64,000 nucleotides of DNA. Source: Armatimonadota bacterium (GTDB lineage Bacteria > Armatimonadota > UBA5829 > DTJY01). Made by a program: the position numbers and the translations under genes. Location of the stretch: positions 13,159-77,158 of the forward strand of contig JAIMAU010000006.1 in NCBI GenBank assembly GCA_023511795.1, given 5' to 3'. The notes under the pieces are model-generated. The model had not been told where the DNA came from. It ran no database searches and was given only the letters and a program-made list of their open reading frames with translations. Below are positions 11,193-58,615 of this stretch, piece by piece; positions within the stretch are counted from its first letter, which is position 1; each line of letters begins with the position of its first letter.

Positions 11193-11580
11193 GAGGGCAA
11201 GGATTGAGATCGTGCCGATGATAGACACGATCTTCTTTCTTCTCGTTTTCTTTATGATTGCCTCGCTGGCAATGACCACCATGAAAGGCATGCCAGTAAA
11301 CCTACCTAAGTCAAGCACGGCTCAAGATAGGTCTATGGTGAAGACCGTTGTCACCATAACTGCAACTGGCAAATTCTATGTGGACAAGCGTCCTGTTCCA
11401 TTCGCGCTTATCCAACCGACTTTGAGGGAGAAACTGAAAGAGAATCCTAAAATGGTTGTTGTAATCAATTGCGACAAGAGCCGCAATTGGGGCGATGGCA
11501 TCGAGGTGATGGATGAAGCAAAAAAGGCCGGCGCTGAAATCATCACCATTGCCACAGAACCAAAGATTGAGAAAAAGTAA
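11167..11580 (+). CDS. exbD: biopolymer transport protein ExbD/TolR
   Basis: 137 aa; RIEIVPMIDTIFFLLVFFM single TM then periplasmic domain; overlaps exbB end. Confidence 0.85.
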   Translation: MRLKRFEPKRARIEIVPMIDTIFFLLVFFMIASLAMTTMKGMPVNLPKSSTAQDRSMVKTVVTITATGKFYVDKRPVPFALIQPTLREKLKENPKMVVVINCDKSRNWGDGIEVMDEAKKAGAEIITIATEPKIEKK

Positions 11581-11581
11581 T

Positions 11582-12616
11582 ATGCGCGACCGGTTGCTTA
11601 CATACGCAATTGCTGCTTCGATTGGAATCCATCTTGCCATTCTTGGTTTGGTTGGCAAAACATCGGCTGCCCGTCCGATTGAAATCGAAGATCTTAAGCT
11701 AGTTCGAGTAGAGGTTGTTGACATCCCGGAGAATGTGAAAGTTTCAGAGCCAGAGAACATCAAACCTGCGCCTAAACTCAAATCAACCGAGTCTGAACAC
11801 TTACCGCTCCCACCGCCGGAAAAGATACCAGTAGCACCGCCAGCAAAGCCAAAACCAAAGCCAGGTAAACAGCCTCCATATCAAGAGACTAGAAAAAAGG
11901 CGCCAATTTCTGGATATTCTCCTGGCTCAACCATTGCCTCTAATAAACCGCCGGGCGACCCGGGCGGGGACTTGAACTTCGGCTCACCAAGCCATCATGG
12001 TGATATCAACATTGGCCCAAGTGGCCAGACACCAGTTGGATGGGTTCCTGGAAACCCGGGCGGCAAGGGCGTAGGTTCAGGCAGTGGAGAAGGTGTTGGA
12101 AAGCCAGAACCCCTACCGAATGCGACTCCAGGTCCTGGTCAAGAACCAAACCCAGCGCCACCACCTCCACCACCTCCGCCACCTCCGCCGCCGCCTGACA
12201 TAGACGTAAAGGTATGCGCCGAATCTGGAATGCTGCCAGGTCCATACTGCGAAAAAACGGTGATTAAGTCATTTAGGCCTGGCAAAGAACCAACCTCAAT
12301 TTGCACAATCTGCAAGCCAAAGCATATCTCAACCCTGGCCGACAGGGCTGAGCCAGAATTGGTCAGCGGGTCAAAGCGTCCGAAATACCCTCCATCAGCC
12401 AGGGACCAAGGAATCGAGGGCTCTGTAACAGTCGAGTATACCATCAACACAGAAGGCAATGTTGTGGGCGTAAAGGTTACAAAATCTTCCGGCAGCATCG
12501 AACTTGACCGCGCGGCGACCGAAACCGTCCAAAGTCGAAAATATAAGCCTGCCGTTCAGGGCGGCATTCCTCGAAACTTTCGCAAACGCGAAACTTTCCA
12601 CTTTGCACTGGATTAA
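11582..12616 (+). CDS. tonB: TonB family energy transducer (Pro-rich spacer, C-terminal TonB domain)
   Basis: Start moved to ATG 11582 (MRDRLLTYAIAASIGIHLAILGL TM anchor) right after exbD stop. Spacer contains a run of 13 Pro; C-terminus KYPPSARDQGIEGSVTVEYTINTEGNVVGVKV... Confidence 0.8.
   Translation: MRDRLLTYAIAASIGIHLAILGLVGKTSAARPIEIEDLKLVRVEVVDIPENVKVSEPENIKPAPKLKSTESEHLPLPPPEKIPVAPPAKPKPKPGKQPPYQETRKKAPISGYSPGSTIASNKPPGDPGGDLNFGSPSHHGDINIGPSGQTPVGWVPGNPGGKGVGSGSGEGVGKPEPLPNATPGPGQEPNPAPPPPPPPPPPPPPDIDVKVCAESGMLPGPYCEKTVIKSFRPGKEPTSICTICKPKHISTLADRAEPELVSGSKRPKYPPSARDQGIEGSVTVEYTINTEGNVVGVKVTKSSGSIELDRAATETVQSRKYKPAVQGGIPRNFRKRETFHFALD
12158..12196 (+). repeat. 13 consecutive proline codons (CCA/CCT/CCG)n inside tonB
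   Basis: ccaccacctccaccacctccgccacctccgccgccgcct. Confidence 0.8.
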
Positions 12617-12996: not shown

Positions 12997-13437
12997 ATGA
13001 TATATCCTTCGATGGATGAGCTTGACGCCAAGGTAGGAAGCAAGTATGCGCTAGTTATAGCAGTGGCAAAGCGAGCGCGCCAATTGCGCGAGGGTGCTCA
13101 ACCGCTGGTCGAAAGCACATCCAAAAATCCGATCACCATTGCTCTTGAAGAAATTGCGGCTGGAAAGATTCGGATTCACAAGCCAACTCCAGAGGAACAA
13201 GCGGCCCGGGAAGAACAGCTTGCTCTTCCTCGCGAACGCAAGCGTGAAATAGAAGAAGCAGTCGATCTTCTCAGAGCTCCGGTACAAGAAGTCACGGAAA
13301 AGACGGGCGATGAAAAAACATCCCATGAGGAAGAAGGAGAGCTCACTGCTTCGGGCAATGGCTTGTCCAATGTAGATGACCAAGGTTCATTGGGTGAAAT
13401 CGGGCTCGAAGAAAGGCCCGAGATTGTAGAAGAATAA
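12997..13437 (+). CDS. rpoZ: DNA-directed RNA polymerase subunit omega with long acidic C-terminal extension
   Basis: 146 aa; N-terminus [31 protein letters not shown]...[13 protein letters not shown] matches RpoZ core; GGGGAG SD. Confidence 0.7.
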
Positions 13438-13501
13438 TACTTAGAAATTATAAAAAGCCTCGAAACAACTTAAGCACACATTGAGTAACTAAACAACCAA
13501 G

Positions 13502-14647
13502 ATGCCTGTGAAAAGAGATTACTATGAGGTATTGGGAGTTGACCGCGGGGTATCTCAGGAAGAAATCAAGAAGGCATACCGACGGTTAGCTCGCCAATAC
13601 CATCCAGATGTAAATAAGGGCGACTCGAACGCCGAGGAAATCTTCAAGGAAATCAACGAAGCCTATGATGTCCTGAGCGACCCAAAGAAGCGCGAGATAT
13701 ATGACCGATATGGTCATCAAGGGCTAAATGGTCGCTTTTCAGGGTCTGGACCTGGGTTTGGATTTGAGGACTTCGGCATTGGCGGATTTGGCGATATCTT
13801 CGATTTGTTCTTTGGCTCAGGCATAAGAACAGAACAACATCGAAGATCAACCGCCGAACCCGGTGCAGACCTTCAATATGAACTTGAGATTACCCTGGAG
13901 GAAGCTGCCACCGGCGTTGAACGTGTATTCCGACTATCAAGAATGGAACGATGCGAAGCCTGTAATGGAGCTGGGTATCCACAAGGCAGTTCGCCAGGGT
14001 TATGCCCTGACTGTGGCGGCACTGGCCAGATAGAACATCGTCGCTCAACAATACTTGGGTATATCTCATCGGTAAGCACATGCTCCCGATGCCGGGGCAC
14101 AGGCGAGATACTTACGAACCCTTGTCGCAATTGCGGCGGCCAGGGGCGCATTCGCCAGACGAGTGAGCAAACTGTTCACATACCGGCCGGCGTTGAAAAC
14201 GGCTCTCGAATTAGAATCCGTGGGGCTGGCGATGCAGGTATTCGAGGCGGCCGAGCAGGAGATTTGTACGTAATAGTCTACATCAAGCCTCACAACATAT
14301 TTGAGCGTCGCGGGGACGACATCATTTGCGAGGTTCCCATAAGCTTTGTTCAAGCTGCGCTTGGTGATACGATTGAGGTGCCAGTGCTTGGTGGGACTAC
14401 TACTCTGCGCATTCCGCAGGGGACCCAACCAGGACAGGTTTTCAAACTTGACGGCAAGGGTATGCCCAATCTTGATACAGGGCGGCGGGGCGACGAACAC
14501 GTGGTTATCAAAGTAACAATCCCGACTGAGCTTTCGGCCCAGCAGAAAGAATTGCTCGAGCAGTTCGCTCAGTTGAGCGGGATCTCGGTAGAAAATGGCC
14601 GAGGCAAAGGCTTGTTTAGAAAAAAAACAACAAAAGAAGTAGGCTGA
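13502..14647 (+). CDS. dnaJ: molecular chaperone DnaJ
   Basis: 381 aa; J-domain YYEVLGV...HPD, Gly/Phe-rich region, four CxxCxGxG repeats. Confidence 0.95.
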
Positions 14648-14653
14648 AATATC

Positions 14654-15520
14654 ATGCGTTGGGCCGAAATGGAAGTCCAAACCAACGTGACGGCTCAAGA
14701 AGCCGTCGAAGCGATAATGTTTGAGAACGGATGTGGTGGCTTAGCCATTCAAGGTGAAACCCCTGTCTTCATTAAATGCTACCTCCCAGTTGACGATCGG
14801 CTAGAAGAACGCATATCCAATATCCAAAGTGGCATTGCAAACCTCACCAAGTTTGGGCTGGACCCAGCTCCTGCCGAAATTACTATCAAATATGCCGAAG
14901 AACAAGAATGGGCAGAGGCGTGGCGTCAGTTTTTCCGCACAACCCGAGTTGGAAAGCATATAGTTATTAAACCCCCATGGGAAAAATTTAATCCTGAACC
15001 CGGCGACGTAGTGATTGAAATCGAGGCAGGCATGGCCTTTGGAACAGGGCAACACCCAACCACTCGTATGAGCCTTGAAGCCCTTGAGAAGCGCGTTCGG
15101 CAATGCATGACCGTCGTAGATTTTGGTACTGGTTCGGGAATCTTGGCGATTGCAGCGGCGAAACTAGGCGCCTGCCTTGTAATCGCATTCGACATAGACG
15201 AGCTCGCCGTCCGAGCAGCAAGGGAAAACGTCCAGCGTAATAACGAAGAAGAGCATATCGAGGTCCACCAAACTGATAACTTAGGGTTCATTCAAACTAC
15301 TGTTGACCTAATCACGGCAAACATAGTAGCCGAAACGATCACAAAAAACGCTCCTGACATCGCCCGCGTACTTCGCAGGGGCGGCATCCTCATTGCTTCA
15401 GGTATCGTAGACGAGAAATCGGCAGACGTCGAACGTGCACTTCGAAACGAAGGTTTTGACATAGCGGAGATCCTCAAAGATGGCGAATGGACAACCTTGG
15501 TAGCACATAAAGCCAGCTAA
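14654..15520 (+). CDS. prmA: ribosomal protein L11 methyltransferase
   Basis: 288 aa; VVDFGTGSGILAIAAAKLGA SAM motif; dnaJ-prmA order. Confidence 0.9.
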   Translation: MRWAEMEVQTNVTAQEAVEAIMFENGCGGLAIQGETPVFIKCYLPVDDRLEERISNIQSGIANLTKFGLDPAPAEITIKYAEEQEWAEAWRQFFRTTRVGKHIVIKPPWEKFNPEPGDVVIEIEAGMAFGTGQHPTTRMSLEALEKRVRQCMTVVDFGTGSGILAIAAAKLGACLVIAFDIDELAVRAARENVQRNNEEEHIEVHQTDNLGFIQTTVDLITANIVAETITKNAPDIARVLRRGGILIASGIVDEKSADVERALRNEGFDIAEILKDGEWTTLVAHKAS

Positions 15521-35596: not shown

Positions 35597-36697
35597 CTAA
35601 ATTCTAATCGGATATCTTCCCACTTCCTTTGCGTACTTCACCGCCTGCACCAAGGTATTAGGATTAACTCCTACGTAAGTCTCGCCGCCAACCGCCAGGA
35701 TAAATCCACCTCCGGGCGCACCAATGCGTATCGCGCGGTCAATAGCTGGCTTTGCAGTCTCCAAATCATAATACAAATCCCGACAATTTAGCCCACCCGA
35801 GAAAACTGTCTTTCCATGTAATGCCGGTTTGGCTTTTGCTATATCGCTGAAGCCACCGATATCCATGCTAGTAAGCTTCATGTCATTCGCATACATCTCG
35901 AAATGGTGGTCATTTGGGCCGTCAGCATGAAGATGCCGACCCTTCTTGCCATATCGTTCATAGATTGCCATATTGTATGGAAAGACAAATTCTCGGTACA
36001 TTGCATTTGAGATGAATGCAGAATGATCATCGGCTAGACCAATGCTCTCCGTTCTCCGACCAGCAAGTTTGTCGCGATAGTCCTGAAGTCGGCAGAATGC
36101 TTCTAGGAGCTTTGCAAAGAAACGGTGAATTAAGTCGGGGGCTTCATACATTAGTGAGAATATAAGCTCTGGCTCGGCTAGGGCACATGCACAGCTCAAT
36201 GGTGGATGGATTCCGATAGCTCCCCCTGCTGGCAATCTGATTCCACGTTTTTCGACCAACTCCTTAAATTTTTCAATTCGGCGATAGGCTTCCTGAATCC
36301 CTGGACTCTCGGCCGGATCTGGTACCTCAAATGCCTCAATTTGCTCTGGCTTCTCAATCGTCTTCACAACCCACGGGGATGTGTCGTCCGGATACTCGAT
36401 TGGAAAGCCAAAATAAAGCCCTTCGCCAATTGGTCCAAAATCCAGATGGAGCCCATAGCTGACTCTATCGTCTTGCAGCTCATCAAATGCCCATTCCAAA
36501 CCCCTGAGCTGTACTTCCAAGCAGACTTCTAGGTCGGTGTAGTAGTCGCGGATATTATAGCCAAAAAGCTTCGCATAGAAGCTGCCGCCTGTGCCTATTT
36601 GAATTGGCACGCGGTCTGGCTCTTCAAATCTTCTTATTATTTCCAGCCGCTTTTTAGATTCCTCGATGCGGTCTATATAGCTATCAGGATTAAACAT
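35597..36697 (-). CDS. uroporphyrinogen decarboxylase (URO-D)/MtaA-like family protein, paralogue 1
   Basis: 366 aa; URO-D-like TIM barrel length and composition; no heme-pathway context. Confidence 0.7.
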   Translation of the reverse strand: MFNPDSYIDRIEESKKRLEIIRRFEEPDRVPIQIGTGGSFYAKLFGYNIRDYYTDLEVCLEVQLRGLEWAFDELQDDRVSYGLHLDFGPIGEGLYFGFPIEYPDDTSPWVVKTIEKPEQIEAFEVPDPAESPGIQEAYRRIEKFKELVEKRGIRLPAGGAIGIHPPLSCACALAEPELIFSLMYEAPDLIHRFFAKLLEAFCRLQDYRDKLAGRRTESIGLADDHSAFISNAMYREFVFPYNMAIYERYGKKGRHLHADGPNDHHFEMYANDMKLTSMDIGGFSDIAKAKPALHGKTVFSGGLNCRDLYYDLETAKPAIDRAIRIGAPGGGFILAVGGETYVGVNPNTLVQAVKYAKEVGRYPIRI

Positions 36698-38176: not shown

Positions 38177-39262
38177 TTATTGCGCCGGTGCTGTAGGCAA
38201 CGGTGGAGGTGTCTGCATCTCCCTCTCATCTTTGCTAAACGGCCAACCGCTCACATCCATCATCTTTTTCATATCTAAAGCGCGGTCAATTATGATGGTT
38301 TGCCATGGCAGCCCTTGAATTCTCCTGATGCGAAGCAGATCATCAACACTCTCTCCCGTCTCAGCAGCAATATTCGCCGCTATAGCTACACTTTGCCAAT
38401 CGTAGCCACGAACGCGGAGTTCATTCCACTTCTGCTGAGTTATGAGTGGTGCGTTATTTGCGCCTCTCTTATAGTAAAGCAGCGGTGCAACCGCACCAGA
38501 GGGCGCAGTAACAGAAGGCAGCTCCATTATGGCTCCTGCAACCTCTACCCTTGGTACGGGAGTGAGAAGCTCAGCAACTGTCATATTGCATGACTGTGCG
38601 ATGTCGCTCCAAGTTTTCCCAGACTCAAGCATTGAAGCCACATCAGCCACCTGTTTATTGCACCTAAAAGCCGCATTTGCCATAACGGCTATATCTGAAT
38701 AGCTCCAACCACGCATCCGTAAGTCATTCGCTGTGTCACTACTCAACCCAAATCTCTGAGTGATGATGTGGCTTAGGAACGCCTCATCCTCGGGAAGCAC
38801 TGCAACCCGCGAGAAATCAGCCGCTGAAACACGACTGCCAGGAAGGTTGCCTTGAGCGACTATAGTGGTCGGCATTGGATTGGAATCATCCGCTGGTTCA
38901 AGAGAAACCGCCAGCATATCAAATGGCATGGCGTCTGAAAAACGGACTAGCCTTGTTCTTACATTGAACCTCATTCCCGCGAAAGCCCCAAGGCTGAGTT
39001 TGTAGTTGGCATCATTATCAACAAACCATGCTTCATAAACCATGTTAGCGGGTGGGGCCTTATCCGTTCGGGCATTTACCTCAACATTGTAATATGGGCT
39101 AGTCCCCGAAACCTTGGCCGAAATTATCGTGGCCAAACCAGACACTCCCTGATCCCCTACGGGTTTCAGGTCCACATTGTACACATCGGCCGCCTGAGCC
39201 TGCAATCCCAGCACAAACACAGCGGCCAAGCTCAGCATTAGTACTAACCTTGCGCTTCTCAT
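38177..39262 (-). CDS. secreted protein with two tandem about 65-aa helical repeats
   Basis: 361 aa; signal peptide; repeats ITQRFGLSSDTANDLRMRGWSYSDIAVMANAA... and ITQQKWNELRVRGYDWQSVAIAANIAA...; Pro-rich C-terminus. Confidence 0.55.
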   Translation of the reverse strand: MRSARLVLMLSLAAVFVLGLQAQAADVYNVDLKPVGDQGVSGLATIISAKVSGTSPYYNVEVNARTDKAPPANMVYEAWFVDNDANYKLSLGAFAGMRFNVRTRLVRFSDAMPFDMLAVSLEPADDSNPMPTTIVAQGNLPGSRVSAADFSRVAVLPEDEAFLSHIITQRFGLSSDTANDLRMRGWSYSDIAVMANAAFRCNKQVADVASMLESGKTWSDIAQSCNMTVAELLTPVPRVEVAGAIMELPSVTAPSGAVAPLLYYKRGANNAPLITQQKWNELRVRGYDWQSVAIAANIAAETGESVDDLLRIRRIQGLPWQTIIIDRALDMKKMMDVSGWPFSKDEREMQTPPPLPTAPAQ

Positions 39263-39321
39263 GCTTTTCTTTCCCCTTTCCTCATGCTATTGGTTGTCTA
39301 TTTGCTACCACATAAAGCCCT

Positions 39322-39348
39322 GCGGCCGAGCCTAACCGGCTCGGCCGC
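39322..39348 (-). terminator. terminator hairpin after hsp20 (GCGGCCGAGCC-uaacc-GGCUCGGCCGC)
   Basis: Perfect 11-bp stem 20 nt after hsp20 stop; moderate U content downstream on minus strand (CUUUAU). Confidence 0.5.
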
Positions 39349-39368
39349 TCATAATTAGCACTTAGTTA

Positions 39369-39815
39369 TTATCCCTCAACAGGAACTTTCTTCTCTTTCT
39401 CCTTCGCCTCCTCGGCCTTTGGAGCTACGACTTCTAGTACACCGTTCTTGAACGTAGCCTTAACTTCTTCGGGCTTAATGGCTACAGGCATGGGAATGCT
39501 GCGATAGAACCTACCAGCTCGTCTCTCCCGGCGATAGTAGCCTTCTTCTTTAACCTCTTCCTCGCGCTTGAACTCGCCCTTCAAGCTGATGCTGTCTTCC
39601 GTAGCCGTAACTTCGACGTCCTCCCGCTTTAGGCCAGGAAGCTCAGCCTTGATGACTATGTTGTTATCCCTTTCAAACATGTCAATCGCCGGGGAGATTA
39701 CCTCCTCTCGTGGCATCACGAGTAAAGGAGTTCTCCAAAATTCCTCAAACAGACGGTCCATCTCCTCTCGCATGCGTCTTAGCTCAGAGAATGGTTCCCA
39801 TCTCATTAAACTCAT
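39369..39815 (-). CDS. Hsp20/alpha-crystallin family small heat-shock protein
   Basis: Start at ATG (MSLMRWEPF) 5 nt after AGGAGGTGA; alpha-crystallin domain AIDMFERDNNIVIKAELPGLKREDVEVT...GVLEVVAPK. Confidence 0.9.
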   Translation of the reverse strand: MSLMRWEPFSELRRMREEMDRLFEEFWRTPLLVMPREEVISPAIDMFERDNNIVIKAELPGLKREDVEVTATEDSISLKGEFKREEEVKEEGYYRRERRAGRFYRSIPMPVAIKPEEVKATFKNGVLEVVAPKAEEAKEKEKKVPVEG

Positions 39816-39843
39816 ATCTCTCACCTCCTAAGAATGTTATTTT

Positions 39844-39897
39844 CGAGTGTCCTAGCGAATCAGGATTTTGCGTTTTGTGGACAAGTGTCCATCGCAA
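39844..39897 (-). promoter_or_regulatory. candidate operator upstream of hsp20: palindrome TGGACA-CT-TGTCCA nested in TTGCG...CGCAA, plus second GGACACTCG copy
   Basis: Read on minus strand 25-80 nt upstream of hsp20 start; not CIRCE, not HAIR. Confidence 0.4.
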
Positions 39898-40016
39898 TTT
39901 TTTAATACCCAGGAGAAAAACGAGCTTAAACTATTTGGATGACGAAAATTTGGGGGCTTTTCAAAGCATGTTGGGGCACAAGGGCTAACTAAGCACCTAC
40001 ACTACAATCTAGGATA

Positions 40017-40985
40017 TTACAACCACTTGATACGCTTAAAGTAATAGAGAAGAACGACACCAATCAATGCCATTAGACCTAAAGCGTAAGGATAACCATA
40101 TCGCCAAGTGAGTTCCGGCATGTAACGGAAATTCATACCGTAAATAGCCGCTACCAATCCCACTGAGATCAAGACTGTCGCTGCGACCGTGAGCGATTTC
40201 ATCACAGCATTGAGCTGATTGGAAATTACCGTGAGATAGGCATCCAGCGCACCTGCTAAGATGTCGCGATAGGTATCTATGGTGTCTACAATTCGCAAGG
40301 TGTGGTCGTAAATGTCGCGCAGATATGTCACTGCCTGCTCCGAAAGAAGCGGTTGGTCCCTTCGGGTTAGGATATTGAACATATCCCTCAGTGGAGTTGC
40401 AATCCTTCGCAAGACCAGCAAGGTTCGCTTCAGCCGAAATATTCTTTCAGGGGACTCTGCTGCTTCCTGCTTAAATATACTGGTCTCAATTTGGTCAAGC
40501 CTTTCGTCTATTTGGTCAAGGATGGGGAAATAAGAGTCTACCAGTGCGTCAAGAATATCGTACAACAGCAGTCCAACACCGCCCACAAATGCCTGGGGGT
40601 GCCGGCTCCACCTATCCGCAACCTCATGGAGAACTGCGAGCTCCTGCTTATGTAGAGTTACAATATAGTTTTTGCCCACAAAAATATCAAGCTCTATCGG
40701 CCGGACATCTTCCTTCTTTGGGTTGTATGTTACAAAGTGCGATACCAAGAAAAGATAGCCTGGATATTCATCAACCTTAGGCCTATGATGTGGAGTAAAA
40801 TAATCGTCTATTGCGAGCGGATGGAAACCAAACTCTGAGGCGAGCTTTTCCATCTCCTCTTTCGAAGGATTCATAGCGTCCAACCAAACAATAGTCTCTG
40901 GATCGGCAATAAAATCACTAATCTGGGCTATGTTTTTTATAATTTGGACGCCTTTATTCGGGTGATAAGCTGTAATGCGGAACAC
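40017..40985 (-). CDS. corA: magnesium/cobalt transporter CorA
   Basis: 322 aa; two C-terminal TM helices with YGMNF (GMN) motif; 11 nt after grpE. Confidence 0.9.
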   Translation of the reverse strand: MFRITAYHPNKGVQIIKNIAQISDFIADPETIVWLDAMNPSKEEMEKLASEFGFHPLAIDDYFTPHHRPKVDEYPGYLFLVSHFVTYNPKKEDVRPIELDIFVGKNYIVTLHKQELAVLHEVADRWSRHPQAFVGGVGLLLYDILDALVDSYFPILDQIDERLDQIETSIFKQEAAESPERIFRLKRTLLVLRRIATPLRDMFNILTRRDQPLLSEQAVTYLRDIYDHTLRIVDTIDTYRDILAGALDAYLTVISNQLNAVMKSLTVAATVLISVGLVAAIYGMNFRYMPELTWRYGYPYALGLMALIGVVLLYYFKRIKWL

Positions 40986-40996
40986 GTCGTAATATC

Positions 40997-41668
40997 CTAA
41001 CCGTCTTGGTCCACCCTGGGATGGTGGGCAACCTTTACGGCACTCGGTCTAATCACACGGCCATTCATGGTGTACCCTGTCCGAACCTCTTCAACGATAG
41101 TTTCGTCGGGGTATTCCGTCGTATCCACACGTGCAACAGCTTCATGCTTCATTGGGTCGAATTTTTCACCAACAGCTTTTATCGGTTCAACGCCTTCCTT
41201 CGCGAGGAGATCACGGAGTTGACGCAGGATGAGTATTACACCTCCATGCAGAGAGTCAAAATTCTTTGTCTCTTCTGCAGCTTTGATAGCCCTTTCAAAG
41301 TTGTCAAGAATTGGAAGCAACCGAATAATGAAGTCTTCGGTAGCAAATTTCCTTACTTGCTCCAACTCCTCCCTAGCACGGCGTCGGTAGTTGGTAAAAT
41401 CAGCAAGCGTTCGAAGGAAATTGTCATGCTCCTCCTCCGCTCGCCTCTCTGCTTCCTCACACCGTTCCTTTAAGATGCGAATGTCTTCGGGAAGTACTTC
41501 TTCTGCGGTGGATTCCACGACAATATCCGCTTCTTCAGGCGATTCTGAAAACACCTCAGGCGGAACTACGCCAGTCTCCTCAAGCTCTTTATCCCGGTGT
41601 TGTGCCTCAGACTCGGAAGAGTTTTGCGCTGAATTATTATTTATTGGAATTTTCCGTTTATTTGCCAT
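40997..41668 (-). CDS. grpE: nucleotide exchange factor GrpE
   Basis: 223 aa; ...DNFLRTLADFTNYRRRAREE...LLPILDNFERA...MNGRVIRPSAVKV. Confidence 0.9.
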   Translation of the reverse strand: MANKRKIPINNNSAQNSSESEAQHRDKELEETGVVPPEVFSESPEEADIVVESTAEEVLPEDIRILKERCEEAERRAEEEHDNFLRTLADFTNYRRRAREELEQVRKFATEDFIIRLLPILDNFERAIKAAEETKNFDSLHGGVILILRQLRDLLAKEGVEPIKAVGEKFDPMKHEAVARVDTTEYPDETIVEEVRTGYTMNGRVIRPSAVKVAHHPRVDQDG

Positions 41669-41767
41669 TTTTCTACCTCAATGAACAAATTTCACAGCTT
41701 GTTCTTTTCGAATATGATAATTCTTGTTAACCCTGGCATGCTTTTTCACACCAAAAGCTAATTACGT

Positions 41768-43342
41768 TCACTTACCCGCTGGCGGCTGAGCAGTCGCCTC
41801 GGTGTCATCATTACGCTTTTTAATTATGGTATTAATCCTGAGAACGGCGTCTGCAATCTCAGCAGCAGCCTTTAGAGCGTGAACTTTAACCTTTAAGGGA
41901 TCAACTACCCCCAGCTCCCACATATCGGCAACTTCGCCAGTATCGCATTCAATGGCAAGTGAGACCTTGCCTTGTTCTGCTTGGGCGGCTATCACGTCCT
42001 CGACTTTCTCAAGGGGGTTGAACCCAGCATTTGCAACGATTTGGCTCAGAGGTTTCTTAAGGGCCTCCGCCACACAATCAACGCCATAGGCTGCCATACC
42101 CTTAACCCCATCTCTCAGGAAAGAAACCTCTCTCGATGCAGCAATCTCGATAGAGCCACCGCCTGGAACAACCCCGCCTATAATAGCGGCCTGGACTGCT
42201 GAGGCGGCGTCGCGCGCAATCCGCTCGCGCTCGTCTCTGACCTCCCTTGTTGCTGCACCGACAAGTAGTGTGGCGGCAGGCTTCCCAATTCCGCCCATAA
42301 TACGTGTATGTTCCAACCTCTCATCTTCATATACCCGTGCGCATCGCCCAACAAACAAAGATAACTCCTCAAGCGATTTCTTTAGACCCGCTCGCTTTAT
42401 TGTCTTTGCACCCGTATGTTCCACAATCCTTGCTATGTCCCTCGTAGATACACGACGGAGAACTATAATACCAGCATCGGTAAGTAACTCCTCTGCCAAA
42501 TCTGCAACACCTTTATTTGTAACAACGAGACCAATTCCCAAATCAACGATTTTCCGCAAATTTTCACAAAACTCGTTTTGAAGTTGAACATATCGCGCAA
42601 AACCCGATTCTGTGCCAAGTGCATCATCTTCCATTCGTTCGGGCTCAAGCGCGTCATCAATTGCCAACACCTTGACATCTTTAAGCGATCGCGGCATCTG
42701 GCGGTTCATGCGCTCTTTCTCTATAATGAGACCTGTAAATACTTCGTTCTGCGCGCCTTCTTTTGCGACAATAGTATCAGCAAGTTTGAATGCTGGTTCC
42801 GCCAGTTTTTCTTTACCCACAAGCTTTGCCGCCTGGACGACCAAGTCTGCAATCTCGGCATCCTCTCTTCCGGCGATATAAGCCGCCTGCCAAAGAAGTG
42901 GGTCGTCGAAGTCCTTGACTTGCTTGCTTGCGGCTTCCAATACCTCAAGGGCTCTTTTCATACCAATGGAAAGCCCTTGTATCACCTTTGTCACCGGCAC
43001 GCCTCTAGATACCCTGCTGACTCCTTCCATTACAAGGGCAGAAGCTAGGATGGCAGCGGTAGTTGTGCCGTCGCCTACTTCTTCATCTTGAGCCTTGGCG
43101 GTACGGATAACTAACCTTGCGGCAGGGTGACTTATATCAATCTTGTCGAGAATCGTACTGCCATCATTGGTAATTGTCACGTCGCCGAACTTGTCAACGA
43201 GCATGCAATTCAGACCTTTAGGTCCAAGCGTTCCTTCAACAGACGAAGCAACCGCGCGCACTGCGGTTGCATTCGCAAGCAATGCCGCAAGGCGCTCATC
43301 CACGTCCGCCGACTTACTTACCTGCTTAATGTTTGAACTCAT
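41768..43342 (-). CDS. archaeal-type (group II-like; bacterial 'group III') chaperonin, thermosome/CCT family
   Basis: 524 aa. GTLGPKGLNCMLVDKFGDVTITNDGSTIL...HPAARLV...QDEEVGDGTTTAAILA, GIIVLRRVSTRDIARIVEHTGAKTI, VVPGGGSIE, ELGVVDPLKVKVHALKAAAEIADAVLRIN all match thermosome signatures, not GroEL (no GGM tail, no GroES partner). Confidence 0.88.
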   Translation of the reverse strand: MSSNIKQVSKSADVDERLAALLANATAVRAVASSVEGTLGPKGLNCMLVDKFGDVTITNDGSTILDKIDISHPAARLVIRTAKAQDEEVGDGTTTAAILASALVMEGVSRVSRGVPVTKVIQGLSIGMKRALEVLEAASKQVKDFDDPLLWQAAYIAGREDAEIADLVVQAAKLVGKEKLAEPAFKLADTIVAKEGAQNEVFTGLIIEKERMNRQMPRSLKDVKVLAIDDALEPERMEDDALGTESGFARYVQLQNEFCENLRKIVDLGIGLVVTNKGVADLAEELLTDAGIIVLRRVSTRDIARIVEHTGAKTIKRAGLKKSLEELSLFVGRCARVYEDERLEHTRIMGGIGKPAATLLVGAATREVRDERERIARDAASAVQAAIIGGVVPGGGSIEIAASREVSFLRDGVKGMAAYGVDCVAEALKKPLSQIVANAGFNPLEKVEDVIAAQAEQGKVSLAIECDTGEVADMWELGVVDPLKVKVHALKAAAEIADAVLRINTIIKKRNDDTEATAQPPAGK

Positions 43343-43411
43343 TTTTGAACTTAAGAAGGGATCCTGGGGCTGAGGGATTCAGGTATCCAGCAACCCGCCA
43401 TAACATGCTGA

Positions 43412-44449
43412 TTATCCAATACTTAATTGGGTCAGCATCTGGCTGAGGCTCGATGCCATTAGCTCAACAGCGGCCACTGCACGCCGATAATCCATCCTTG
43501 TAGGCCCTACTACTCCTATGCTCCCGCATACGCGATCGCCGATGTGATAGTTTGCTGTAACAAAGCTGCAATCGCTTAGCTCACAGAACTGGTTTTCCTC
43601 GCCGATAATGACGGTTACATCCTTGCCAAGTAATGCCGTGCTCAAAACCTGGAATAGGACTTTGCGCTTTTCAAGGGCGTTGAGAATCATCGTAAGCTTT
43701 TCTGTTCGGGAAAATTCCGGCTGTTTGAGAATATGGCTTGTTCCGTCTATGAAAACCTCGCTGTCAGTAGCCGCAACCAGCGCCTGCTTTACGAGGGCAA
43801 CCACCTTTTTGTAAAAAGCAGTCATTCTAAAAAGCTCTGCCGGCAGAGCATTTCTAATCCTAGTAGTAAATTCGCGCAACTCAGCACCTTGTAGACGCTC
43901 GTTAACTAGACTCCCAATAGAATTAAGGTCAACAGTGTTGAGGTCGCTCTCCCAATCTAGCAATCGGTGGTCAATATGTCCGGTGCTAAGTACAGTGATT
44001 ACAAGAAGCTTGCCCCGGCCAATTGGAGAGAGTGCTACATAGCGAACACTTATGGTGCCCATCTGTGGCTTAGTTGCCAGAGAAGTATATTGGGCCAATC
44101 CAGACAGAATCCGGCACGTCTGTAAAAGGATGTTCTCAATTTCGCTCTCATAAGGATTATATGCCGCCCTTGCACGCGAAGCTTCTGCTCGCCCCAGCTT
44201 GGGATCAGGCATTAGCTTGTCAACATAGTACCGATAGCCAAGGTCTGATGGTACGCGGCCCGCAGATTTGTGCGGTTGTTTCAAGTAGCCCAGCTCTGAC
44301 ATAGCTGCAAGCTCATGACGAATCATCGCGGGCTTAATTCCGAAGTTGTAGTTCGCCGCTAGCGTTTCCGAACCTACCGGTTCTGCAGTCCTCACATATT
44401 GATTTACAATTGCTTCCAGTATTTTGCTTCTCCGCTCGCCGAGTTCCAT
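43412..44449 (-). CDS. hrcA: heat-inducible transcription repressor HrcA
   Basis: Start at ATG (MELGERRSKILEAIV) 6 nt after GAGGTGA; winged-helix N-terminus; C-terminus VCGSIGVVGPTRMDYRR. Confidence 0.9.
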   Translation of the reverse strand: MELGERRSKILEAIVNQYVRTAEPVGSETLAANYNFGIKPAMIRHELAAMSELGYLKQPHKSAGRVPSDLGYRYYVDKLMPDPKLGRAEASRARAAYNPYESEIENILLQTCRILSGLAQYTSLATKPQMGTISVRYVALSPIGRGKLLVITVLSTGHIDHRLLDWESDLNTVDLNSIGSLVNERLQGAELREFTTRIRNALPAELFRMTAFYKKVVALVKQALVAATDSEVFIDGTSHILKQPEFSRTEKLTMILNALEKRKVLFQVLSTALLGKDVTVIIGEENQFCELSDCSFVTANYHIGDRVCGSIGVVGPTRMDYRRAVAAVELMASSLSQMLTQLSIG

Positions 44450-44503
44450 CGGCTTCACCTCAAATAACAAGGTAGCCGTATGCGCAAACCTTCTTCTGAT
44501 AAG

Positions 44504-44532
44504 AGTATACCATTAGCAACGTCTAGAGTCAA
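44504..44532 (-). promoter_or_regulatory. sigma70 promoter (TTGACT-N17-TATACT) for hrcA-chaperonin-grpE-corA operon
   Basis: Near-consensus hexamers about 50 nt upstream of hrcA start. Confidence 0.55.
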
Positions 44533-44618
44533 CATGGGAAAGCTTGCGGTGATTAGCTAACGATGCACACAAGGAGTTCTTATTAACTGACATTTTTATT
44601 AATAAGGGATACCTGGTG

Positions 44619-44945
44619 CTATGTAGTATTACCTATAATAAAAAGTGCCATGCCTATGGAAACTGCCGCCATTCCAATGTATTGCATTGGCGATACTTTT
44701 GGGCTAAAAATTAGGAGAATTGCTACTTGAGCACCCAGGAATCCGCCAGCAGTACACAAGCCAAGCGCAACATTTGGATTCATTGAACGATAGAGTAACA
44801 TTAGAAACCATATGCTTGAGGCTCCAAAAACATTGCCGCAGATATAACCTATCAACCATTTGCTCGGATTGGCGCTCCCATACTTAAAAAACACCTGCGC
44901 CGCCGCTTGCATTAGCCAAAATACAATTAGCCAAACGAGGTTCAT
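44619..44945 (-). CDS. small 4-TM membrane protein (SMR/DMT-like)
   Basis: Hydrophobic ORF; likely start MNLVWLIVFWL; exact start uncertain. Confidence 0.4.
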   Translation of the reverse strand: MNLVWLIVFWLMQAAAQVFFKYGSANPSKWLIGYICGNVFGASSIWFLMLLYRSMNPNVALGLCTAGGFLGAQVAILLIFSPKVSPMQYIGMAAVSIGMALFIIGNTT

Positions 44946-45176
44946 ACCTGCCCTGCCCCCAACTCCAAAAGCTTGATCTCGACAAGCGGAAAATAAAGCC
45001 TTATCCCCCAACGACATCTAACCATGGATAGGAGCGCAAGCTTAGTGACAGCATAGGTCACAAGCAAGCATGGCTCGGATTAAAGGATTCCATACACCTG
45101 CATTGCTTACTTAACTGCCCGCCCAAAAAGCGAACTAAGACAACCGCTATTTTGCAGCCAAGCTTCTCCACAACTT

Positions 45177-45941
45177 CTACTTTAACCCCATCTCTCTTAA
45201 GTTGCGAAGGCTGATTGCTAGGCTCTCGAATGGATCTCTTTCGCAAATATCCTGCTCAACAAGGTACCATTCAACTCCGGCTTCCATAGCAGCTTCCAAT
45301 ATCTCAGGCCAGTTCAGGTTGCCCTCGCCAACCTCCATCATGATTTGCTGGCCGCCCCTATTGCCCATATCCTTCAGGTGAAGCAATGGAACGCGGTCTT
45401 TGCACCGCAGAATCCACTCTGCTGGGTCGCCCCCACCATGCTGAACCCAATACGTATCAATCTCAAAATTGAAGTAAGTGGGGTCGCTCTCGGTGCGAAG
45501 GATTTCTAAGCCAATCTTGTCGCCAAATTTTTCGAATTCAAAGCTATGGTTGTGATAGCTGAAAGTTAGACCACCTTGGGCTAGCTTCTTTGCCACCTTA
45601 GAAGCTTCCTTTGCAAACTGATGGAAGCCCTTAGCATTTCGGTATTCTTGGGGCATCCCACCAACTGCAATGTGCTGACATCCCCACAGTTGATGTTCTT
45701 CGATGACCCGTTCCGTTTCGTTCCGCATGCGGTGGTAAGGAGTGTGGGTAGCACAAATATAAACACCTTCACCATCAACAATTTTCTTCAGCTCAAGCGG
45801 GTCGATTGGGCCAAAGCCAGAGACTTGGACTGCCTCATATCCGATTTCTCGAATCTTCTTAATTGTCTTGGCAATATCAGCAGGAGTTTGCGTAAACTCG
45901 CGCACAGTATAGAGTTGTGCACCAATTCGTGATTCGCTCAT
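45177..45941 (-). CDS. sugar phosphate isomerase/epimerase (xylose isomerase-like TIM barrel)
   Basis: 254 aa; GAQLYTVRE N-terminus, HNHSFEFE, metal-binding E/D/H pattern typical of AP_endonuc_2 fold. Confidence 0.8.
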   Translation of the reverse strand: MSESRIGAQLYTVREFTQTPADIAKTIKKIREIGYEAVQVSGFGPIDPLELKKIVDGEGVYICATHTPYHRMRNETERVIEEHQLWGCQHIAVGGMPQEYRNAKGFHQFAKEASKVAKKLAQGGLTFSYHNHSFEFEKFGDKIGLEILRTESDPTYFNFEIDTYWVQHGGGDPAEWILRCKDRVPLLHLKDMGNRGGQQIMMEVGEGNLNWPEILEAAMEAGVEWYLVEQDICERDPFESLAISLRNLREMGLK

Positions 45942-56385: not shown

Positions 56386-57513
56386 ATGCAACTCTCACCA
56401 CGTGAAAGAATTCTACATGTTTACAAGGGCAAGATACCTGATGCGGTACCCTTCATGCTTGACCTATCGCATTGGTTCTACCACAAAACCAGAGCGCCAT
56501 GGGACCTTAGCTCCAGCTACCAGGAGCCTGAGAAAGCGTTAATTGACTATCATAAGCGCATGGGCGTTGGTTTTTACATGCCAAATCTGGCAGCTTTCTT
56601 CTCAATAGAGCATACAGACGGCGTCAATCTGGAAATTAATAAGGAATTCCAGGCTGGCAAATGCGAAATTGTGTGGCGTTATAATACACCCATTGGAAGC
56701 ATTGAGAGAAGACGCATTTGGAATTCCAATACGTATTCCTGGTCGGTCAGTCGCTGGGGATTTGAGTCAGCGAATGATATACGGGTGCTTGAATATGCAC
56801 TAACATCCCGCAGATATGTGCCGCAGTGGGACAATTACAAAGCATGGGCAGACTATGTTGGCGATATAGGAGTTGTCTATATTCCGGCAGGGTACAGCGC
56901 AGTCGGACAACTCCTTCACTATTGGATGGGAATCGAGCGATTTGTGTACGCCGCCCATGATTACCCCAATACAATGCGCGAGGTCGTTAAAAAAATCAAC
57001 GCCAATAATCTTGAATGCATAGACATGCTCTGCTCATCCCCAGCTGAGGTTATAATAATGGGCGATAATTTTTCAAGCGATGTCCAGCCGCCACATTTCT
57101 TCAAAGAATGGTCACAAAACTACTACTTTGAAGCCATCAGCCGCCTTCATTCTGCTGGGAAATTCGTTGCAATACATATAGACGGGCGATTGAAGGGTGC
57201 ACTGGCGATGATTCGTGCGACAGGCGCCGATTGTGCTGATGCGGTAACACCCACACCCATGGGCGACCTAACGCCAGATGAATGCCGGTCAGAGGCAGGC
57301 CCGGAGCTTATTCTTTCTGGCGGCGTTTCGCCGGAACTCTGGCTACCCAACACAAACATCGAAGACTTTAGGTATGCTGTAATGCGATGGCTGGACCTCC
57401 GGAAGCAAAGCCCTCGGTTAATCGCTAATGCCGGCGACCAAGTTCCCCCAGGAGCAGAAGAAAGCCGGATTGCTCTGATGCGCGATTTGGTTGAGAAGTA
57501 CGGCAAATACTAG
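56386..57513 (+). CDS. URO-D/MtaA-like family protein, paralogue 2
   Basis: 375 aa; same family features as 35597-36697 and 57521-58615. Confidence 0.7.
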   Translation: MQLSPRERILHVYKGKIPDAVPFMLDLSHWFYHKTRAPWDLSSSYQEPEKALIDYHKRMGVGFYMPNLAAFFSIEHTDGVNLEINKEFQAGKCEIVWRYNTPIGSIERRRIWNSNTYSWSVSRWGFESANDIRVLEYALTSRRYVPQWDNYKAWADYVGDIGVVYIPAGYSAVGQLLHYWMGIERFVYAAHDYPNTMREVVKKINANNLECIDMLCSSPAEVIIMGDNFSSDVQPPHFFKEWSQNYYFEAISRLHSAGKFVAIHIDGRLKGALAMIRATGADCADAVTPTPMGDLTPDECRSEAGPELILSGGVSPELWLPNTNIEDFRYAVMRWLDLRKQSPRLIANAGDQVPPGAEESRIALMRDLVEKYGKY

Positions 57514-57520
57514 CGCTTTG

Positions 57521-58615
57521 CTACCACAATTCTTTCAAGAGTTCAATCATGTACTTGAAATTCTCAAACTTGGCGTTTGGGGGAACAGCATGGTCGACGG
57601 CAGGAATCCAGCCAAGACGCGCATAAAGCTTAGTTGCCTTTGGAACTACCTCTGCCTCAACATCAGCCCTTTCGCCAATTAGACAACGTTTATCCAAACC
57701 ACCAATGAAAAGGAACTGTGGATATCTCTCAGCATACTCAACAATGTCTTGCTCGGCAGCTATCTCAACAGGGCTTGTGCCGTCTACCCCAGCTTCGATC
57801 CAAAAAGGAATCAATTCGCTTATGTGCCCGTCGCTGTCAACGAACACTTTGTCTGCACAGATACTCTTCGCTTCTTGCACAAGCTCTCGATATCGTGGCA
57901 AGAATTTATCTCGAAGGATAACAGGTGAAACCATGCATGCAGTTTTATATGCCATATCTTCATTAATCATAAGATTATCCACGTGTGCATCGGCAAGATG
58001 CTTGCGCAGTAACCGCACATTGAAATCGAGCACGAAATCAAGCATCTCATCCACGAGCTCTGGCAAGTCATAAAACGCCATCGAAAGACCTTCGAAGCCC
58101 ATCCACTGTCGTAGTGTCCAATAGAAGCCTTGTATGGTAAACATCACGGGACGCTCAGCAGTATGGGAGCGCCGAACGGCCTCATCGAAGCATTGTCCAC
58201 GGCGCCTAGGGTCCTCAGGATCATAGCGCTCCTTCATCCTCAGGAAATCATCTCTGTTTTCGACAGGAAACTTAAGCCATTTCCGAGTGACAAAGCCACT
58301 ACCCTGGGCATCTCTGCGTTCGGTGCGGAGGGCACCTTCCTCATCATAGTAGGTAACTTGACCATCTTTTTCTTCGACAATTATCAACTCGAATTTTGGG
58401 CAATGTGATGTGTTGAGAGGAATGCCTTCGAACCAATCATATCCAAGAAATTCGGCGGTGCTAATGCCCTCGGGATGCCCCTGCTTTATCCACTCGTCCA
58501 TAGTTCCCTTTCGCGTAGGAAAGGTCCAGATGAATGGTCTGTCGGGCCGCTGAAAATCCATTATAGCGCGATATCGTTCTCTCGGCGTTGTAGAATGAAC
58601 GCTATTCACAGACAT
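57521..58615 (-). CDS. URO-D/MtaA-like family protein, paralogue 3
   Basis: 364 aa; convergent with paralogue 2, 7-nt gap. Confidence 0.7.
   Translation of the reverse strand: MSVNSVHSTTPRERYRAIMDFQRPDRPFIWTFPTRKGTMDEWIKQGHPEGISTAEFLGYDWFEGIPLNTSHCPKFELIIVEEKDGQVTYYDEEGALRTERRDAQGSGFVTRKWLKFPVENRDDFLRMKERYDPEDPRRRGQCFDEAVRRSHTAERPVMFTIQGFYWTLRQWMGFEGLSMAFYDLPELVDEMLDFVLDFNVRLLRKHLADAHVDNLMINEDMAYKTACMVSPVILRDKFLPRYRELVQEAKSICADKVFVDSDGHISELIPFWIEAGVDGTSPVEIAAEQDIVEYAERYPQFLFIGGLDKRCLIGERADVEAEVVPKATKLYARLGWIPAVDHAVPPNAKFENFKYMIELLKELW

Follow-up and report, generated by a model that had tools for sequence, protein, structure and literature searches.

In a 64-kb stretch of the genome of an Armatimonadota bacterium (GCA_023511795.1, contig JAIMAU010000006.1), hereafter the window, five co-oriented genes occupy the minus strand at 39.3 to 44.5 kb. 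They encode the repressor HrcA, a thermosome-like chaperonin (gene abbreviated cpn), the nucleotide-exchange factor GrpE, the magnesium channel CorA, and the small heat-shock protein Hsp20, and they are separated along that order by 69, 99, 11, and 201 nt (Table 1). The order hrcA-cpn-grpE-corA had been proposed in an initial annotation of this DNA, and both the open reading frames (ORFs) and the domain profile scores agree with it. With good confidence, we interpret the locus as a remodeled dnaK-type heat-shock operon of Armatimonadota that is built around a group III chaperonin. The identity of the genes and their arrangement are firm; our conclusions on regulation are much less certain.

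Table 1. Features of the heat-shock locus and of the rpoZ-dnaJ-prmA cluster, with positions in the window
Feature	Position	Strand	Details
hrcA, heat-inducible repressor	43412..44449	-	345 aa from ATG 44449; PF01628, TIGR00331 302 bits vs cutoff 197
Group III (thermosome-like) chaperonin	41768..43342	-	524 aa; 69 nt after hrcA
grpE, DnaK nucleotide-exchange factor	40997..41668	-	223 aa; PF01025 173 bits, NF010738 157.5 vs cutoff 137
corA, Mg2+/Co2+ channel, Thermotoga CorA type	40017..40985	-	322 aa; TIGR00383 301 bits vs cutoff 201
hsp20 / alpha-crystallin small heat-shock protein	39369..39815	-	148 aa; PF00011 77 bits
Sigma-70-type promoter (predicted)	44504..44532	-	TTGACT, 17 nt, TG-n-TATACT (extended -10)
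Sigma-B-type promoter, hsp20 (predicted)	39905..39931	-	GTTTAA-N15-GGGTAT
G+C-rich hairpin after hsp20	39322..39348	-	11-bp stem, GCGGCCGAGCC/GGCTCGGCCGC
rpoZ-dnaJ-prmA	12997..15520	+	rpoZ 12997-13437, dnaJ 13502-14647, prmA 14654-15520

The protein encoded between hrcA and grpE is, on the strength of its sequence, firmly assigned to the group III chaperonins and is neither GroEL nor an archaeal group II thermosome. All of the motifs listed in the initial annotation (LGPKGLNCML, ITNDGSTIL, QDEEVGDGTTT, VVPGGG, and VDPLKVK) are in the translation, and PF00118 (Cpn60_TCP1) matches residues 31 to 510 of the 524 with 382 bits. The top NCBIfam models were those for thermosomes, at 301 bits against cutoffs of 400 to 671, with GroEL models far lower; a score below all cutoffs is expected because that library has no model for the group III family. 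Among proteins with solved structures, phmmer ranked 9RWQ first (638 bits), followed by Ch-CPN of Carboxydothermus hydrogenoformans (5X9U, 452 bits), ACII (283 bits), and thermosomes (228 bits or less). The first of these is ACIII, a resurrected group III ancestor (PMC12696368); its molecule name in the structure record reads "Ancestral Group II Chaperonin (ACII)," a labeling slip relative to that paper. In sequence identity to the window protein, the group III ancestor stands at 60%, Ch-CPN at 44 to 45%, thermosomes at 31 to 32%, and GroEL at 28%. We also constructed a neighbor-joining tree of 23 sequences with references from groups I, II, and III and a GroEL outgroup sequence entered by hand. 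Group III, including the window chaperonin, was monophyletic in 100 of 100 bootstraps, a figure that concerns group III monophyly; in this small tree, the Armatimonadota clade was nested among Bacillota. Profile search and phylogeny thus agree on the group III assignment made initially, and the protein did not cluster with GroEL.

Structural features point the same way. The hallmarks that An et al. described for group III are a hydrophobic lid tip of L237, F243, Y246, and F253, an arginine (R155) substituting for the lysine of group II, and D373 (PMC5635000). In our alignment, the lid-tip positions correspond to L242, F248, Y251, and F258 of the window protein, while R159 (IAGRED) and D378 (IARDAA) correspond to R155 and the catalytic D373, and both are invariant in our alignment of chaperonins (A1). 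The lid aligns with that of Ch-CPN without gaps but requires 3+1 gaps against thermosomes, and the nucleotide-sensing-loop site is likewise gapless against Ch-CPN, whereas thermosomes carry a 5- to 6-residue insertion relative to the window protein. An AlphaFold model (pLDDT 87.4) places lid helices at residues 239 to 243 and 245 to 267. When this model was searched with Foldseek, the top matches were the open and closed structures of Ch-CPN (5X9V and 5X9U; TM-score 0.88 to 0.95, root mean square deviation 2.1 to 2.3 Å), compared with TM-scores of 0.80 to 0.85 for group II thermosome and CCT structures. The best fold match of the predicted structure therefore also supports membership in group III. 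With archaeal thermosomes and eukaryotic CCT, the window chaperonin shares the three-domain fold and the built-in lid that takes the place of GroES, but its lid is shorter, it lacks the nucleotide-sensing-loop insertion, and it falls in a separate clade.

Relatives of this chaperonin are numerous. Proteins from metagenome-assembled genomes (MAGs) of Armatimonadota are 65 to 98% identical to it, and those of Bacillota, such as Pelotomaculum, reach about 63%; in NCBI, the Armatimonadota MAG proteins are already annotated as members of the TCP-1/cpn60 family. No database record matched the window protein exactly, the closest being 98% identical. At least 584 hits in species-representative genomes match group III-type peptide patterns, and 2,333 proteins score at an E value of 1e-30 or better with the window chaperonin. 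The locus had been described as a rare bacterial group III arrangement; group III stands, and rare does not.

We compared 90 related loci, which we label L001 to L090. Eighty of them are from the species-representative genomes with the closest chaperonins, were taken with 10-kb flanks, and were sorted by gene order; L081 to L087 are further close relatives that were looked up, including the 98% match (L081). About 50 of the 80 have the canonical order hrcA-cpn-grpE-dnaK-dnaJ-prmA, and nearly all of these are labeled Bacillota. Armatimonadota loci have hrcA-cpn-grpE or cpn-grpE and never dnaK. The exact order hrcA-cpn-grpE-corA(-hsp20) recurs in independent assemblies made from different samples with different assemblers, so the arrangement in the window is not an assembly artifact. 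In three more distant Armatimonadota loci (L026, L039, and L064), where chaperonin identity is 62%, the order is cpn-grpE and hrcA is absent, which makes grpE the more constant neighbor of the chaperonin gene in this phylum.

Other contexts were also seen in the survey. Nine Bacillota loci (L013, L028, L033, L036, L041, L046, L060, L065, and L077; genes at about 8.8 to 13 kb of each) have hrcA-cpn-dnaJ(-prmA) with neither grpE nor dnaK, and this is a second noncanonical context for group III chaperonins. All nine keep the HrcA operator CIRCE (the controlling inverted repeat for chaperone expression) at hrcA, perfectly in eight and with two mismatches in L013. In four unclassified MAGs (L009 to L012, about 5.9 to 17.8 kb; e.g., L010:5923-17800), the chaperonin gene sits in an unrelated conserved cluster whose genes encode, in this order, an AMIN-amidase, GerM, an Asp/Glu racemase, RNase PH, a DUF4446 protein, the chaperonin, and a DUF6259 protein of 1,300 to 1,460 aa, and no hrcA, grpE, or dnaK was found within 20 kb of it.

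The organization of the window can be set against two known operons. The Ch-CPN operon of C. hydrogenoformans, hrcA-cpn-grpE-dnaK-dnaJ, likewise has the chaperonin gene between hrcA and grpE, but its host belongs to the Bacillota, and the window has corA and hsp20 instead of dnaK and dnaJ after grpE and no CIRCE before hrcA. With the HrcA/CIRCE-controlled hrcA-grpE-dnaK-dnaJ-prmA operon of the Bacillus subtilis type, the window shares hrcA as the first gene, grpE downstream, and a dnaJ that is still linked to prmA, which marks a common origin. The window differs in that the genes are split into hrcA-cpn-grpE and rpoZ-dnaJ-prmA, the operator has been lost, and a chaperonin gene has been inserted.

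Neither dnaK nor groEL was found in the window by tblastn or by Pfam scans of 48 of its ORFs, in line with the initial description of an operon without dnaK, and in the flanks of all fetched loci, neither gene was found outside canonical operons. The dnaJ gene lies about 27 kb from the hrcA operon, next to rpoZ and prmA, as had been noted, and encodes a full three-domain type I protein (PF00226, PF00684, and PF01556). The rpoZ-dnaJ-prmA order is kept in other Armatimonadota (L088, L089, and L090), and no dnaK was found near dnaJ in the three Armatimonadota genomes that we located through homologs of the window DnaJ. In Bacillota loci, dnaJ-prmA directly follows dnaK. Because the Bacillota operon ends in dnaJ-prmA, the simplest scenario is that an ancestral hrcA-cpn-grpE-dnaK-dnaJ-prmA operon came apart both before and after dnaK, which would make rpoZ-dnaJ-prmA the detached distal half of an ancestral dnaK operon. 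A broken operon fits the disorganized genome that is reported for a cultured member of the Armatimonadota (PMC4959169).

At the head of the operon, the predicted hrcA ORF begins at TTG 44470, but ATG 44449 is more likely to be the start: it is preceded by GAGGTG, and both the N-terminal alignment of relatives and the 345-aa gene call in L081 agree with it. Similar ribosome-binding sequences precede grpE (GAGGTA) and the hsp20 ATG at 39815 (AGGAGGTG), and the hsp20 gene calls in L081 and L082 are likewise 148 aa. The stretch 5' of the chaperonin ATG (43343-43360, minus strand; CTTCTTAAGTTCAAAAATG) has no Shine-Dalgarno sequence, and the same is true of L081 and L083. TIGR00331, an equivalog model, spans residues 12 to 346 of HrcA, indicating a full-length repressor. 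The near-consensus promoter that had been noticed upstream is present on the minus strand at 44532-44504 as TTGACT-17-TATACT with an extended -10 TG, matches 10 of the 12 hexamer positions, and lies about 48 nt upstream of the hrcA ATG. Its architecture, CTTGACAC-N14-(G/A)ATG(G/C)TATACT, is kept upstream of hrcA in Armatimonadota relatives. TTGACA occurs in 12 of 15 Armatimonadota hrcA upstream regions and TATACT in 9 of the 15, and only TTGACA(C) and TATACT are conserved.

No operator lies between this sigma-70-type promoter and the hrcA ATG in the window. The initial annotation had reported no canonical CIRCE, including upstream of hrcA, and a degenerate search for the pattern TTAGCACTC-N9-GAGTGCTAA with up to three mismatches returned nothing in the 64 kb; at five mismatches there were three hits, all at irrelevant places. 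At Armatimonadota loci, CIRCE was not found even at four mismatches, and the scan at three mismatches covered 387 kb. All 60 non-Armatimonadota loci with hrcA, most of them by far labeled Bacillota, have CIRCE between promoter and gene (59 perfect copies and one with two mismatches). The loss of CIRCE is thus clade-wide in Armatimonadota and no peculiarity of the window, while elsewhere the element is conserved even between phyla that are very distant from each other (PMC545781). A blind search for inverted repeats with half-sites of 5 or 6 nt found none common to more than 2 of the 15 Armatimonadota upstream regions, and the same procedure recovered CIRCE half-sites in 15 of 15 control regions. 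The 5' untranslated region (UTR) of hrcA ranges from about 12 to 170 nt in Armatimonadota and contains no conserved sequence. An RNA thermometer was considered there, as ACCUU can pair with GAGGU of the ribosome-binding site, but it was rejected (z = -0.86, in an unconserved UTR). An Rfam scan of positions 39000 to 45200 at an E value of 1 or less returned only a chance snoRNA hit.

Since there is neither a CIRCE nor a substitute palindrome shared among relatives, and since the UTR is not conserved, we infer that HrcA does not autoregulate this operon. Because HrcA is intact at the equivalog level, it would be expected to act on CIRCE sites elsewhere in the genome. [quoted passage not shown] The window resembles this regulon in having an intact HrcA without an operator at its own gene, but CIRCE at groESL is known in Desulfovibrio and presumed for the window genome.

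Downstream of the chaperonin gene, the grpE stop codon (40997-40999) and the GTG start of corA (40985) are separated by exactly 11 nt. The corA product matches Thermotoga maritima CorA (2BBJ and 4I0U) with 239 bits over both the soluble and the membrane part, and its YGMNFRYMPEL aligns with YGMNFEYMPEL, covering the GMN pore motif and the MPEL loop. It is not a miscalled DnaK, given the TIGR00383 score of 301 bits and the YGMNF motif. What sets it apart from the Thermotoga protein is its tie to a heat-shock gene cluster. We know of no description of such a tie, although no literature search was aimed at grpE-corA linkage; a search on CorA and heat shock yielded nothing directly usable. Among relatives, grpE is followed by corA in L081, L082 (whose contig range is that of L001), L083/L084, L085, L086/L087, and L006, that is, on the same strand and in the same position in seven independent assemblies with chaperonin identities of 71 to 98%. 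The gap between the two genes is 11, 69, 2, 26, or 276 nt among L081 to L087 (72 to 98% chaperonin identity), with 2 nt in L083 and 26 nt in L085, and it is 86 nt in L006 at 71% identity. Judged by these distances, co-transcription of grpE and corA is likely in the window, L083, and L085, and doubtful where the gap is long or contains a hairpin. CorA had been described as filling the position of dnaK. The gene does stand 11 nt after grpE, but the operon is broken there, and corA is a downstream neighbor in one Armatimonadota family only rather than the filler of a dnaK slot.

The gaps between operon genes in relatives contain structures of their own. Long, genome-specific palindromes resembling REP (repetitive extragenic palindromic) elements are present at L003:9851-10001 and 11551-11663, L082:5907-6001 and 7554-7634, and L006:12110-12197, and in L003, two copies of a GTAGGGGCGATCCTTC.ACGGTCGCCCG hairpin flank the chaperonin gene. 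Such palindromes may act as mRNA stabilizers or partial terminators. Three Armatimonadota genomes, L085 (5867-6001), L019 (9906-10001), and L004 (9755-10001), share a short, conserved hairpin (GGTCGAG...CTCGGCC, then TTT) immediately upstream of cpn. The window does not have this hairpin, which might serve as an attenuator or a processing site between hrcA and cpn.

With a promoter that is probably its own, hsp20 belongs to the heat-shock cluster. The pattern GTTTAA-N12-16-GGGTAT has its sole match in the 64 kb at 39905-39931, 84 nt upstream of the hsp20 ATG, where 0.01 matches would be expected. Because this conserved site equals the consensus of Bacillus sigma-B general-stress promoters (GTTTAA-N15±2-GGGTAT; PMC9847131), hsp20 appears to have a stress promoter. 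The site is kept in six relatives; it is in the same place in L081, L082, and L086, and variants are GTTTAG...GGGTAA in L083 and GTTTGG-N14-GGGTAT in L019. The consensus comes from a phylum other than that of the window host, and no cognate sigma factor was seen in the window. A perfect palindrome at 39877-39892 (TGGACA-CT-TGTCCA) was rejected as an hsp20 operator, being imperfect in L081 (98% identity) and absent in L082. We also looked for a terminator between corA and hsp20 and found no significant structure there, so read-through from corA into hsp20 is possible. The co-oriented cluster takes in hsp20 and reaches as far as the strong hairpin at 39348-39322, for which the folding energy is -29.8 kcal/mol (z = -3.2). 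This hairpin is likely to end transcription of the cluster, and a simple terminator scan missed it because its T-tract is weak (CUUUAU).

Beyond this hairpin, a gene at 38177-39262 (minus strand) encodes a protein of 361 aa that has a signal peptide and an RskA_C-like domain and lacks a cytoplasmic anti-sigma part. An RskA_C-like gene always follows the heat-shock cluster in L001, L003, L006, L019, L081, L082, and L086, and in L003, which lacks hsp20, it is this next gene that a sigma-B-type promoter precedes. The window also contains three paralogous URO-D-like (uroporphyrinogen decarboxylase family) genes, at 35597-36697, 56386-57513, and 57521-58615, and relatives keep one of them in synteny with the heat-shock block.

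As we picture the remodeled operon, hrcA, cpn, grpE, and corA would be read as one transcript from the sigma-70-type promoter, and their expression would be constitutive. By analogy with Desulfovibrio, HrcA would act in trans on genes elsewhere that carry CIRCE, with groESL the most likely target and dnaK a possible one, and GrpE would serve a DnaK that is encoded elsewhere. The chaperonin, if it behaves like Ch-CPN, would form a lidded double ring and fold proteins without GroES. CorA may supply Mg2+ together with the Mg-ATP-dependent chaperones, and hsp20 could be additionally induced through a general-stress sigma factor.

Several observations weigh against this interpretation or parts of it. 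No dnaK, groESL, or CIRCE was seen in the Armatimonadota DNA sampled (the window and the fetched loci). Near its DNA-reading head, HrcA reads GSE.. throughout Armatimonadota and GSR.. in Bacillota, so that the arginine of GSRT has become glutamate; KPATIRNE stands for the SPATIRNE of Bacillota, and the window protein diverges further to KPAMIRHEL (AMIRHE for ATIRNE). These differences may mean a changed specificity of HrcA. At the other end of the operon, the grpE-corA gap is long in L086, and a 20-bp hairpin lies in that of L006; corA is absent from L003 (76% chaperonin identity) and L019 (65%), although the surrounding synteny is kept; and the downstream block of RskA_C-like, URO-D, M55 peptidase, and glycosidase genes is syntenic too. 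With the block syntenic and the gap variable, the linkage of corA may be a matter of conserved synteny and not of selection for co-expression. It is possible, though on balance doubtful, that corA is no more than a syntenic neighbor, unconnected in function with the heat-shock genes, and that genome compaction gave rise to the 11-nt junction incidentally. Such a view accommodates the syntenic block of the corA-bearing family, gaps of 2 to 276 nt that sometimes hold long hairpins, and the two loci that keep the block without corA. It is harder to reconcile with the constant strand and position of corA in seven independent assemblies, or with gaps of 2, 11, and 26 nt in three lineages, which leave no room for a promoter. 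Raised Mg2+ transport is also reported to improve heat survival in Salmonella, which we count in favor of a functional link.

The substitutions in HrcA would be explained if the repressor, intact and still encoded by the first gene, autoregulated the operon through a diverged, non-CIRCE operator that is invisible to a consensus search. The clade-wide change of arginine to glutamate in helix 2 and the altered recognition helix of the window protein would suit this idea, but we consider it quite improbable given that upstream regions share no repeat, that the 5' UTR varies so widely without a conserved sequence, and that CIRCE is conserved over very distant phyla (PMC545781). It is very unlikely that these Armatimonadota do without DnaK, GroEL, or both and that the group III chaperonin and GrpE have taken over. 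We saw neither gene in the window, across 387 kb from Armatimonadota loci, or beside dnaJ, but this DNA sampled less than 10% of any one genome, and the genes for GrpE and for a DnaJ with all three domains have been kept, two proteins that are known only as partners of DnaK. Furthermore, a type I chaperonin of an Armatimonadetes species is on record in cpnDB (PMC6395794, Table 1). Finally, the data refute an archaeal group II thermosome acquired by contamination or recent transfer, as well as an assembly error behind the lack of dnaK. Thermosome models do rank first in NCBIfam, but far below their cutoffs, whereas the gene has bacterial hrcA and grpE on either side, scores 452 bits with Ch-CPN versus 228 with thermosomes, and groups with group III in every bootstrap; the gene order, in turn, is identical in L081 to L087, L001, and L006, which derive from different samples and assemblers. 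We therefore retain the remodeled dnaK-type operon as our interpretation. It amounts to a known system that varies in context and control throughout this lineage, with no new mechanism and with the identities of the proteins unchanged.

In the debate on group III chaperonins, they figure as possible remnants of the thermosome ancestor or as early acquisitions from it. They have been reported to be encoded, "with one exception," within the dnaK operon and to be regulated by HrcA, and the proposed cooperation between CPN and DnaK rests largely on this gene context (PMC5635000, PMC5220055, and PMC5904260). Among the papers available to us, none linked Armatimonadota to group III chaperonins. The statement of a single exception no longer holds, because a phylum-level group keeps hrcA-cpn-grpE without dnaK, dnaJ, or CIRCE, while other lineages have hrcA-cpn-dnaJ without grpE and dnaK or the chaperonin gene alone. 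These dnaK-less contexts weaken the gene-context argument for a direct partnership between CPN and DnaK. The conserved grpE-corA junction adds a modest hint that magnesium supply and chaperone expression are connected. A more far-reaching reading, which we think unlikely, is that the chaperonin module of Armatimonadota has been uncoupled from both DnaK and HrcA/CIRCE and is read from a strong, constitutive promoter, with HrcA respecified or non-autoregulating and Mg2+ import by CorA joined to the module. If that were true, the conserved partner of the chaperonin would be GrpE or HrcA and not DnaK, contrary to the working hypothesis for group III. The natural variants in gene context described here could be used to ask which of these partners matters to the chaperonin.

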